Assembly (NCBI GenBank): GCA_964566575.1
Contig: CAZMKD010000024.1
Coordinates: 14 to 64,013 of the forward strand
DNA length: 64,000 nt
DNA from: an uncultured Verrucomicrobiota bacterium
Lineage (GTDB): Bacteria > Verrucomicrobiota > Verrucomicrobiia > Palsa-1439
Reading direction: 5' to 3'
A program made the position numbers and the translations under genes. The first letter of the stretch is position 1; every line of letters starts with the position of its first letter. The notes beneath the pieces were generated by a model. It was not told the origin of the DNA. It did no database searches and worked only from the letters and a program-made list of their open reading frames with translations. Shown in pieces: positions 27,283 through 29,189 of this stretch.

Positions 27283-27365
27283 TGTCGGACAGCGCCGCGA
27301 CGCCGGGAAGTTCTCGGCCTTCGAGGAACTCCAGCGACGCGCCGGCAGTGCTTATGCGAAGTTGA
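27283..27365 (-). pseudogene. Diverged remnant of the pgk 3' end (…[25 protein letters not shown]) just downstream of the DUF5615 gene
   Basis: Minus-strand translation matches the pgk C-terminus '…[26 protein letters not shown]'; ~70% nt identity including an 18-nt identical core (AACTCCAGCGACGCGCCG). Confidence 0.5.
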
Positions 27366-27672
27366 CGTTGTTCACAATGCCGGATTCGCCGGCCCTGTCG
27401 AGCAGACGAACCAGTGCCGCACGCTCAGCCACGCGTGTTTTCTTGCGAATCAAAATGATGAGACCGCGATGGGGTTGTGATCTCGCTAAGGCCAGATAGT
27501 CGTCGCGGTTGCAGGTAATCAAGATCCAGCCTCGTTGATTGGCATGGGCGAGGACGTCAATGTCGGCGGTTTCTTCGGGCAAGACTTCGCGCAAACGTAC
27601 AACTTCATGACCGAGCGCACGGACGGAATAGACAATGTCGTCCGGAACGTCGTGATCCAGCAGGAAGGTCAT
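27352..27672 (-). CDS. DUF5615-family PIN-like protein (putative toxin component)
   Basis: ~106 aa; typical partner of DUF433 proteins; 4-nt overlap with the upstream DUF433 gene. Confidence 0.6.
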   Translation of the reverse strand: MTFLLDHDVPDDIVYSVRALGHEVVRLREVLPEETADIDVLAHANQRGWILITCNRDDYLALARSQPHRGLIILIRKKTRVAERAALVRLLDRAGESGIVNNVNFA

Positions 27673-27932
27673 GCGTCGGGCGGCGACATCTGACGGGCGA
27701 CCAGTACGTCAATCTCTCCGCGATGGTCTTCGTAGTACGCGAGGCATTCGTACACCTGCGCCTTCGTGATGTCCGGGAAACAGGTCGCGGCGATACTGTC
27801 TACGGTCTCGCCGTTCTGGAGCAACCCGACGACATCGTGCACGCCGATGCGTGTGCCCGCAATGATGGCGTTACCGCCTCGCACCCCGGGCTTGCGGGTG
27901 ATGTACCGATACTCTGTTCCGAGTTCTGCCAT
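27669..27932 (-). CDS. DUF433-domain protein (putative antitoxin/DNA-binding component)
   Basis: 'YRYITRKPGVRGGNAIIAGTRIGVHDVVGLLQNGETVDSIA…' matches the DUF433 signature; 87 aa. Confidence 0.65.
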   Translation of the reverse strand: MAELGTEYRYITRKPGVRGGNAIIAGTRIGVHDVVGLLQNGETVDSIAATCFPDITKAQVYECLAYYEDHRGEIDVLVARQMSPPDA

Positions 27933-27989
27933 GCGCTACGTCTATACCACGCGGCAGGCTGCACGGCAAATCGGAAAACCCGGTAGTTC

Positions 27990-29189
27990 TCAGCGATCGG
28001 ACAACGCGGCAACCCCCGGCAGTTCCTTGCCTTCCAAAAACTCCAGCGACGCGCCGCCGCCGGTGCTGATGAACGTAACGTCCTTGGCCACGCCAGCCGC
28101 CTTCACGGCTTTCGCGCTGTCGCCGCCGCCGATGATCGAGGTCGCGGCCTTGTTACCGGCTACAGCCTTCGCCACGCTGAACGTGCCGTTCGAAAACTCC
28201 GGTATTTCGAAGATGCCCATCGGCCCGTTCCAGACGATCGTCTTCGCGCCGGCGATCTCTTTCCTGTAGCGCTCGATGGTTTGCGTCCCGATATCCACGC
28301 CGCACCAGCCGTCCTCGATGCTCGGGCCGTCGGTGACGCGCGTCGTCGCGCCGGCTTTGGGTTCGGTCGCTTGCAGATGATCGAGTGGCAACAGGAACGT
28401 CTTGCCCTTCGCCTTCGCGAGCAACTCGCCGGCAAGACCGACCTTGTCGTTCTCGACGAGCGATTTGCCGATGCCGAATCCCTGCGCCTTGTTGAACGTG
28501 TACGCCATCGCGCCGCCGATGAGAATCGCGTCGGCCTTCTGCAGCAGGTTTTCGATGACCGCGATCTTATCGGAAACTTTCGCGCCGCCGAGAATTACGA
28601 CGAACGGTCGTCCCGGGTTTGCCAACGCGCCGCCGAGGTATTTTAATTCCTTCTCCATCAGAAAACCGGCCGCCGCTTTGCCGCCGCGCTTTTTGATGAT
28701 CTCCGCCGCCGCGGCTGTCGAAGCGTGCGCCCGATGCGCCGTCCCGAACGCGTCGTTGACGTAGATGTCGATTCCATTCGCGAGCTTACCGGCAAACGCC
28801 GCGTCGTTCTTCTCTTCCTCCGCATAGAATCGCAGGTTCTCCAGCACCAGAACGTCGCCCGGTTGCAGGATGGCCTTGGTATTCTCGACCTTGTCGCCGA
28901 TGCAATCGTCCACGAACGCCACCGGCCGCGACAAAATCTCCGCCAACCGTTGCGCCGCCGGCCGCAACGACTGTTTCGGATCGCGTTTCCCTTTCGGCCG
29001 GCCGAGGTGTGAACACAAAATGACGCGCGCGCCGTACTGCCAGAGATACTCCAACGTCGGCACGGTTGCCTTGATGCGCTTGTCGTCGGTGATCGCGCCG
29101 GTCTCGTCGAGCGGCACGTTGTAATCAACGCGGCAGAGCACTGTCTTGCCGCGAATGTCCTTCAGATCGTTAATGGAAAGTTTCGCCAT
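27990..29189 (-). CDS. pgk: Phosphoglycerate kinase
   Basis: Starts at '[27 protein letters not shown]'; canonical PGK motifs throughout. Confidence 0.9.
   Translation of the reverse strand: [399 protein letters not shown]

Follow-up and report, generated by a model that had tools for sequence, protein, structure and literature searches.

A predicted toxin-antitoxin cassette framed by two diverged ends of pgk in a Verrucomicrobiia genome

In the genome of an uncultured Verrucomicrobiota bacterium, the pgk gene (phosphoglycerate kinase) is followed by a small cassette of two genes, DUF433 and DUF5615, a predicted toxin-antitoxin pair, and then by a second, diverged copy of its own 3' end. The window referred to below is the whole stretch of DNA analysed, 64,000 nucleotides (nt) of contig CAZMKD010000024.1 (GenBank assembly GCA_964566575.1). 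We find that the two pgk ends are homeologous, coming from different lineages, that the cassette is an insertion into the junction between pgk and tpiA, and that about a quarter of related cassettes are framed in the same way by the ends of many other host genes. We propose, with a probability of roughly 0.55, that the cassette was brought in by host recombination anchored in the conserved gene and completed by an imprecise join, which would leave it framed by homeologous pgk tails. The pgk case is clearly an instance of a known, poorly understood mode of insertion, extended here to toxin-antitoxin cassettes. What is new is the evidence that the duplicated segment consists of a resident copy and an imported copy.

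An earlier note on this DNA, made by reading the sequence alone, had reported that the end of pgk recurs downstream of the gene, with the DUF433 and DUF5615 genes exactly between the two copies, and both observations are borne out (Table 1). Aligned with the 2 kb downstream, the pgk tail gave a local score of 38, compared with a mean of 11.2 (sd 1.3) and a maximum of 17 in 200 shuffles, which rules out chance similarity. The downstream copy is present, and its position is a few bases off the 27283-27365 first given for it. The two tails are identical at 58 of 78 nt (74%), with one codon missing in the remnant, and the best ungapped 60 nt are 80% identical (27285-27344 vs 27997-28056). When the 26 aligned codon pairs are compared, stops included, 11 show no difference, 12 only a synonymous one and three a conservative replacement. 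The remnant falls in no open reading frame (ORF) of at least 40 amino acids (aa), yet it keeps a clean PGK reading frame. The cassette adjoins both copies, leaving a gap of 57 nt on the pgk side, while on the other side the TAA stop of the toxin gene is overlapped by the first bases of the remnant. At the gene-internal edge of the repeat, an 18-nt block is identical in both tails. This block is the likely switch or crossover point, and its identity could also reflect strong conservation of that coding stretch.

We analyzed the differences between repeat copies by codon position, pooling nine repeat pairs (294 codons) from the window and from other loci described below. Mismatches at positions 1, 2 and 3 occurred in the ratio 19:14:63 (chi-square P = 1.4e-10). 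Neutral decay of one copy after an in-situ duplication predicts that about 45% of the differences fall at third positions, whereas 63 of 96 were observed there. In-situ duplication with a neutrally decaying remnant is rejected both for the pooled pairs (P = 2e-4) and for one locus, L125, alone (P = 5e-4). The L125 repeat spans 85 codons with three amino-acid changes among 19 nt differences, and the 45 nt upstream of its start codon are about 40% diverged, far above the coding part. Because the differences are mostly synonymous, both tails must have worked as gene ends until recently, that is, in different lineages. Thus, as far as their codons tell, the two pgk tails are homeologous and are not a gene end and its decayed in-situ duplicate.

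Table 1. Positions of the features discussed in the text (numbering of the window)
Feature	Position	Strand	Remarks
pgk (phosphoglycerate kinase), intact	27990..29189	-	Pfam PGK E=7e-154
Active pgk tail, left repeat copy, 26 codons + TGA	27990..28070	-	fused to pgk
pgk-tail remnant, right repeat copy, 25 codons + TAA, untranslated	27278..27355	-	stop TAA at 27278-27280
18-nt block identical in both tails, CGGCGCGTCGCTGGAGTT	28039..28056 and 27327..27344	-	gene-internal edge of the repeat
Third, partial pgk-tail fragment across the active stop codon	27979..27999	-	CGATCGCTGA-GAACTACCGGG, resembling E-G-R/K-E-L-P-G
11-nt inverted repeat arms	27269..27279 and 27977..27987		each 0-3 nt past the active or the remnant stop codon
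Upstream region of the cassette	27933..27978	-	TTGCCG-N17-TATAGA motif; presumed promoter/operator
DUF433 (COG2442) predicted antitoxin, 87 aa	27669..27932	-	Pfam PF04255 E=1.4e-18
DUF5615/PIN_10 predicted toxin, 106 aa, full length	27352..27672	-	PF18480 E=3.6e-15, PF18478 E=1.9e-8
orf411, 411 aa, convergent with pgk	26021..27256	+	N-terminal membrane anchor, no Pfam family
tpiA, usual direct neighbour of pgk	25157..25930	-	Pfam TIM E=2e-96
MmeI-like gene tail copies (about 50 C-terminal codons)	12235-12388 and 11314-11468	-	78% identical, 920 bp apart

The pgk of the window, which belongs to a Verrucomicrobiia genome, is 82-84% identical to the pgk of metagenome-assembled genomes of that class. 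In 20 of the 22 closest relatives pgk is followed by tpiA, abutting it or at most 354 nt away, with overlapping genes or a gap of just 3-90 nt in 16 of the 22. The corresponding distance in the window is 2.06 kb and holds the cassette, the remnant and a further gene, orf411. None of the 22 closest pgk loci carries a cassette, orf411 or a second tail, in agreement with the earlier note, which had taken the cassette as inserted at this place. A second pgk tail was also absent downstream in 80 pgk loci, where the best match to the gene's own tail scored 24 or less. The closest relative found (locus L162, assembly GCA_973526975.1, located via TpiA) has 82% nt identity in pgk and 86.5% in the downstream genes. 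Its pgk-tpiA junction holds a different insert of about 0.8 kb (5179-6000 of that locus), with a single tail and no remnant. Since a different insert occupies the same junction, pgk|tpiA is a recurrent insertion site. Thus, comparison across these genomes identifies the cassette as an insertion into a junction that is an insertion hotspot in the clade. The ORF in the L162 insert (MKPLFTVHAGEYLVGSHIEAH...) has no Pfam match and is possibly frameshifted.

Comparison with L162 also bears on which of the two tails is native. Up to and through the 18-nt block, the pgk of the window matches that of L162 at 327 of 360 positions (91%), but after the block at only 33 of 48 (69%; Fisher P = 8.5e-5 for the drop). 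The corresponding 48 nt of the remnant match L162 at 37 positions. Among 20 other relatives, 18 are nearer to this part of the remnant than to the active tail, and this part is typical of the clade. The active tail is the most atypical of 23 tails compared, with seven states in its last 22 nt that are seen in none or one of the relatives. Codon usage did not discriminate between a native and an incoming tail. The last 49 nt or so of the active tail are therefore probably the incoming substitute, with the native tail displaced as the remnant, a conclusion to which we attach moderate support. The proposal of the earlier note that the insertion supplied a replacement 3' end and left the original as a remnant thus holds in part: the tails differ in a coding-constrained way and identity to L162 falls abruptly, but the direction of the exchange is blurred by a third pgk-tail fragment. 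In addition, pgk itself is a mosaic. Codons ~25-100 are nearest to L001/L002 (86-89%), with L162 down to 67-77% there, and the 3' third of the gene is 87-92% identical to L162. This mosaicism indicates homologous exchange within the gene.

The third fragment is partial, lies across the active stop codon and suggests repeated events at the pgk locus. Its 21 nt include an exact 11-mer in common with the pgk tail of L162 (match at L162 5142-5149), and GAACTNCCNGG occurs four times in the window (0.4 expected), with three of the four at the pgk locus. PGK ends unusually in ...SDR*, and this may be a scar of recombination, its CGC TGA matching the place of GGC CGA in the mid-tail. The 11-nt inverted repeat near the cassette ends occurs at chance frequency (about three expected) and has no flanking short duplication. 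The core word of its arms, the 8-mer ACTACCGG, occurs seven times in the window compared with 0.76 expected and a maximum of three in 100 shuffles. The further positions are 16780, 20714, 23667, 43906 and 58566, several of the seven occurrences lie just 3' of stop codons, and the word is not over-represented in 171 other loci. Standing beside both stop codons, ACTACCGG could be a recombination-stimulating or uptake word; a terminator element is another possibility.

In order to see how general this arrangement is, we surveyed 80 metagenome loci encoding homologues of the toxin (56-74% identical). The 600 nt to the left of each cassette were aligned with the 600 nt to the right, after removal of redundancy and of the window itself. 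A significant flanking direct repeat was found in 11 of 40 distinct homologous cassettes, and in 14 of 51 when shorter flanks were admitted. Neither kind of control scored as high: this held for 0 of 130 pseudo-cassettes placed 2-3.5 kb away within these loci and for 0 of 150 cross-locus pairs (P = 3.7e-8). These repeats span 39-301 nt, have sharp edges and show 74-94% identity. In all 15 repeat-positive loci their start-to-start spacing is 0.7-1.2 kb, enclosing only the toxin-antitoxin pair, in a search that could detect only copies within about 2 kb of each other. Each repeat is the 3' or 5' end of the adjoining host gene, and at least eight unrelated host genes are involved. The 3'-end targets include the tails of a SAM-methyltransferase and of a homocysteine-MTase/MTHFR fusion, and the 5'-end targets include a MoxR ATPase, an amino-acid kinase and ComM. 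For comparison, repeat pairs of this sort turned up about once per 100 kb in 839 kb of unselected sequence, mostly as tandem paralogues. These alignments show that gene-end framing is general and extends to many other genes and cassettes. In three pairs of loci (L105/L135, L087/L091 and L089/L103) a neighbour gene is shared, but the members are too diverged to reconstruct a donor-like arrangement. At another locus, L005, tails of a GltD-like gene flank a YcxB gene.

Other gene-tail duplications, which the earlier note had suggested looking for, also exist, and one is in the window itself. Two copies of the tail of an MmeI-like gene (type IIL restriction-modification), with conserved translation (ILERLLKLNLERA..AEAK..QTKKPKTSR), flank an ORF of 279 aa with helix-turn-helix (HTH) repeats (11399-12238), a duplication of the same kind as that of pgk. 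The MmeI-like gene is split in two overlapping ORFs (12225-13604 and 13075-15387, both on the minus strand) holding MmeI_N/hel/Mtase and MmeI_TRD/C, through either a frameshift or a split gene.

At three loci, recurrence at one site has built tandem arrays of cassettes separated by gene-end copies. In L125 an S9 peptidase gene is followed by a ComM fragment, an Rv0078B-like pair, a ComM 5' fragment, DUF433/PIN and the full comM, giving three copies. The L121 array has three gene-tail copies, with YoeB and DUF433/PIN cassettes between them and MazE/PIN after the third. Similarly, the L147 array contains three ComM fragments; a 206-aa ORF and a DUF433/DUF5615 cassette occupy the intervals between them, and the third is followed by a 493-aa ORF. 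The ComM-fragment copies are about 67-85% identical pairwise and showed no tree-like grouping by genome or by position, so that they look as if each had arrived from a different source. Their gene-internal edges differ by up to 190 nt.

Near-identical cassettes in different surroundings define what moves. A cassette of 97-98% identity occurs in three contexts (L122/L150, L132 and L136). The common segment starts 48 nt before the antitoxin ATG and ends 8 nt (compared with L132) or 25 nt (L122 compared with L136) past the toxin stop. The unit thus measures about 0.64 kb, has variable ends and carries no gene-end segment common to the contexts. By this comparison the apparent mobile unit, of about 0.64-0.7 kb, is the DUF433 antitoxin gene, the DUF5615 toxin gene and some 48 nt of upstream region. 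Additionally, the tail of an MNT-like (nucleotidyltransferase) gene, 95% identical in the two loci (positions 27-92 of L132 and 996-1061 of L136), lies upstream of the cassette in one contig and downstream of it in the other. In L132 the cassette replaces the last four codons of the MNT-like gene. The position of this tail on opposite sides suggests shuffling of neighbouring toxin-antitoxin units.

We then looked for an enzyme that might move this unit. As the earlier note had it, the cassette carries no recombinase, and we found no integrase or transposase in it or among the annotated flanking ORFs; three long contigs for which Pfam annotation was precomputed likewise showed none within ±8 kb. 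At the cassette ends, neither terminal inverted repeats nor a shared edge motif or conserved site was found, and no relatives were found among the 2.9 M viral contigs of IMG/VR, a result that sets aside a phage origin. A transposon, insertion sequence (IS) or miniature inverted-repeat element was likewise rejected: the insert has neither a transposase nor a short target duplication, and apart from the 11-mer already described no inverted repeat lies near its ends. No IntI-like ORF was found among the annotated ORFs; no attC model was run. Of the marks of a site-specific element, an identical core in both copies is present in the form of the 18-nt block, but constant ends and a target core are not, since the ends vary (+8 or +25 nt) and the targets are many. 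Variable ends, many targets and the lack of an enzyme or motif therefore favour imprecise host-mediated joining over a dedicated integrase or transposase. The earlier note had suggested looking for a trans-acting integrase, but nothing points to a dedicated site-specific one: at least eight host genes are used, at 5' and 3' ends, the repeats vary in length without a shared motif, and the cassette ends are not fixed.

These results lead us to the following proposal. The donor would have been another verrucomicrobial lineage in which the cassette already lay beside pgk, and the incoming DNA would have carried a piece of that lineage's pgk tail. One side of this DNA would have been aligned with the resident pgk by host recombination functions, by way of the conserved gene, and resident sequence would have given way to incoming sequence at or beside the 18-nt identical block. 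The far side of the cassette would be a variable region without homology and hence joined illegitimately; here the imprecise join to the resident tail would have used short homology (around AGCAC/GCC) immediately ahead of the block. Such homology is indeed present at the join between the toxin end (TTCGCATAAGCAC) and pgk (TTCATCAGCAC). With the join upstream of the end of the paired segment, a gene end would be left on both sides, one a foreign copy and the other the resident copy. An equivalent route would be a single crossover of a circularised fragment (insertion-duplication). Either way, the outcome would be an "insertion with long target duplication" with a functional target gene, and an addictive toxin-antitoxin pair would oppose loss by recombination between the repeats.

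Several points weigh against this proposal. With a longest identity of 18 nt and overall identities of 74-94%, the repeats would by themselves be poor substrates for RecA-type recombination, and therefore productive pairing must be placed in the upstream gene body. The perfect block at the gene-internal edge resembles the core of a site-specific attachment (att) site, and four of the seven ComM-fragment copies end at the same position. About 70% of the homologous cassettes have no detectable flanking repeat, and many stand at conserved positions without repeats. In L166 (5945-10134) a DUF433/DUF5615 cassette lies between ORFs of 586 and 479 aa that together resemble one PreP-type M16 peptidase, and this split gene shows no duplication at the DNA or protein level. 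At pgk, the third tail fragment and the inverted 11-mer at both stops record a history of more than one event. The direction of the tail replacement rests on 48 nt, and the tail of L162 may itself have been exchanged. The event is reconstructed rather than observed: neither a same-species empty site nor a donor genome was found, and look-ups by exact protein for such a site or for polymorphism returned only the same sequence, the pgk protein being without a record. Lastly, the toxin-antitoxin activity of the DUF433/DUF5615 family is itself predicted.

A bolder extension, which we regard as doubtful, is that in Verrucomicrobiota the end of a conserved host gene, once picked up by a small addiction cassette, may serve it as a recombination site that it takes along. 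Recombination between the homeologous repeats would release the cassette as a circle, and this circle would then integrate at the same gene in another lineage with no enzymes other than those of host recombination. At every such entry the gene would receive a new end, and its previous end would remain as a remnant. Repeated entries would produce arrays like those of integrons with no integrase involved, and the principle may extend to other one- or two-gene units.

The main rival to host-mediated joining, though an unlikely one in our judgement, is a trans-acting site-specific recombinase. The cassette and its substitute tail would then be the attP unit of a non-autonomous integrative element, a satellite resembling cis-mobilizable elements (CIMEs), with the integrase encoded elsewhere. 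The 18-nt block would be the att core, and arrays would form by tandem accretion at a regenerated att site. Elements at the 3' ends of protein genes are known, such as phage 21/e14 in icd and ICESt1/3 in fda. There is also precedent for CIMEs and accretion at such ends (PMC5704250), and the position of the identical block exactly at the gene-internal edge, the chimeric pattern of pgk relative to L162 and the tandem arrays, in which several copies share one end position, all fit. However, no integrase was found, whether in the cassette, among those ORFs of the window that were examined or beside the related cassettes. The targets are at least eight unrelated genes, at 5' and 3' ends and in both orientations, with repeats of 39-301 nt and no common core motif; the ComM gene-internal edges vary by as much as 190 nt. 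Additionally, the near-identical cassettes in three contexts share no gene-end mimic and differ in their ends.

An improbable alternative is that the pair is the relic of a larger integrated element, such as a prophage, an integrative and conjugative element (ICE) or an integrative and mobilizable element (IME), which had its own integrase and was deleted down to the toxin-antitoxin genes. Integrated elements commonly carry toxin-antitoxin modules, which stabilise them, and the window does hold further genes of mobile elements, namely DUF3631 (915-2420) and an IS5-like transposase (62712-63821). Against this, the cassette touches both repeat copies, with the 57-nt gap on one side and the toxin stop overlapping the remnant on the other. 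The 0.7-1.2 kb spacing held in all 15 repeat-positive loci within the ~2 kb reach of the search, and convergent decay to the same minimal unit is unlikely; viral contigs held no relatives.

Equally improbable is a true in-situ duplication, in which staggered breaks or replicative insertion copied about 75 nt that then diverged. This would be the literal meaning of "insertion with long target duplication", and the repeats of restriction-modification units, at 93-100% identity, agree with it. The third-position bias described above speaks against it, however, as do the clean PGK frame of the untranslated remnant, with only conservative changes, and the far greater divergence of the non-coding than of the coding parts of the repeats. 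Finally, an assembly or binning artefact, such as a contig chimeric between two strains, is very unlikely: the contig is metagenome-assembled and repeats can mislead assemblers, but an independent Logan assembly of run SRR9952630 yields a 2,360-nt contig 100% identical across all junctions, the copies have only 18 identical bases in common, too few for a k-mer graph join, and many unrelated assemblies have the same architecture.

Among known systems, the best match is insertion with long target duplication (Nobusato et al. 2000, Gene 259:99; Furuta, Abe & Kobayashi 2010, PMC2853133). In that mode of insertion, restriction-modification units that carry no mobility genes come to be flanked by target duplications of 30-420 bp, through an unknown mechanism; the repeats often include a start or stop codon, which keeps the target gene intact (PMC2853133). 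The cassettes studied here are likewise small addiction units without mobility genes, framed by long target repeats of variable length (>30 bp, up to ~420 bp) with the target intact. Furuta et al. 2010 looked for units of <20 kb without a mobility gene, and the 0.64-kb insert with its two toxin-antitoxin genes is one. They also looked for repeats of >30 bp set against a single copy at a related empty site; those at pgk are 75-78 nt, and the 22 relatives and L162 are single-tailed. Near-identical repeats are typical of the published cases without being a formal criterion (93-100% identical to each other, PMC2853133), and the pgk repeats, at 74%, are not near-identical. Our cases differ further in what is carried, namely type II toxin-antitoxin genes and other small genes instead of restriction-modification genes, in that the repeats are 74-94% identical, synonymous-biased and made up of a resident and a foreign copy, and in the presence of tandem arrays. 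The hosts here are uncultured Verrucomicrobiota, whereas there they were mostly known competent species. The authors of the 2010 study proposed a life cycle in which the repeats serve amplification and release (PMC2853133), and a later review ascribes insertion with long target duplication to restriction-modification systems only (PMC3874152). In a literature search of incomplete coverage, we found no prior description of a gene-end footprint for toxin-antitoxin modules.

Other systems share part of the pattern. Integrase elements that replace gene ends (phage 21/e14 in icd; ICESt1/ICESt3 and CIMEs in fda) also leave a diverged substitute end with the original as a remnant, and they have integrase-less derivatives and tandem arrays at a regenerated site (PMC5704250). 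They differ in that here neither an integrase nor a fixed att core or common att-like segment was found, one cassette family uses many targets, and the unit is ten times smaller than typical CIMEs. Chromosomal integron arrays and Xer-dependent pdif modules resemble our loci in their small promoter-bearing cassettes, often toxin-antitoxin, with repeats of ~60-150 nt and no recombinase of their own. The repeats here are adjacent host coding sequence, not attC hairpins or dif-like sites, and neither IntI nor a conserved recombination site was seen. Homology-facilitated illegitimate recombination and Campbell-type insertion-duplication during DNA uptake have reportedly been described by de Vries & Wackernagel 2002 and Prudhomme et al. 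2002. The former likewise combines a one-sided homologous anchor with a microhomology join and needs no element-encoded enzyme, and in the latter a single crossover of a circular molecule duplicates the homologous segment. Both are laboratory observations and, unlike our loci, usually give deletions or exact duplications.

How chromosomal toxin-antitoxin modules spread has been asked for some twenty years, as they lack mobility genes and yet have a plainly horizontal distribution. The cassette family studied here leaves a footprint that is reproducible and has strong statistical support, in that about one member in four is framed by diverged ends of neighbouring core genes. This footprint ties toxin-antitoxin cassettes to the little-studied insertion mode of restriction-modification units. 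It also offers a mechanistic clue, since repeats from different lineages suggest that the cassette travels with donor flank and recombines in a conserved gene. Additionally, it provides a simple genomic signature for recent cassette transfers and for gene-end swaps in essential genes such as pgk.

The two genes of the cassette fit a predicted type II toxin-antitoxin module of the DUF433(COG2442)-PIN-like kind, judged by gene order and domains. They lie on the same strand, antitoxin first, and overlap by 4 nt (27669-27672). The predicted antitoxin matches PDB 2GA1 (E=6e-4). Nearly all toxin homologues are 106 aa long among the 120 best listed. In 29 aligned homologues D6, D8, D37 and D58 are invariant, and the C-terminal NFA* is present in 29 of 29. 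COG2442/DUF433-PIN was predicted as a toxin-antitoxin family by Makarova, Wolf & Koonin 2009 (PMC2701414), who described DUF433 as a DNA-binding three-helix domain and a predicted PIN-associated antitoxin. Our pair has the same domains, gene order and overlapping small genes as that family, which was a prediction there, with the insertion mode not addressed. A literature search found no experimental paper on the DUF433/DUF5615 toxin-antitoxin family. The TTGCCG-N17-TATAGA motif upstream of the cassette, presumed from its sequence to be a promoter/operator, recurs upstream of related cassettes (L083 and L087), and a strict sigma-70 scan called no promoter in this region.

On either side of the cassette, the pgk ORF stays open upstream as far as a GTG at 29249, and orf411, which the earlier note had not remarked on, stands between the pgk remnant and tpiA. 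This gene has a GC content at third codon positions of 0.62, compared with about 0.78 in neighbouring genes, is the sole member of its 90% cluster and occurs in none of the relatives. It is a separate, lineage-specific insert, unrelated to the cassette.

Elsewhere in the window, a small Zn-ribbon (TFIIB-type) gene is present in two minus-strand copies, 88% identical over 311 nt (53822-54169 and 55148-55468), that flank a DUF2459 gene (54259-55089, plus strand). This may be a further insertion framed by a duplicated gene, or the copies may simply be paralogues. The mobile-element-like genes of the window comprise the DUF3631 protein, small HTH/XRE-like ORFs (3650-4826) and, at the window end, the DDE transposase of the IS5 family. 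Lastly, tandem paralogous SBP_bac_5 solute-binding genes (21147-24718) are 65% identical over 1.6 kb, and a 33-nt tandem repeat (24738-24878) lies just upstream of them.

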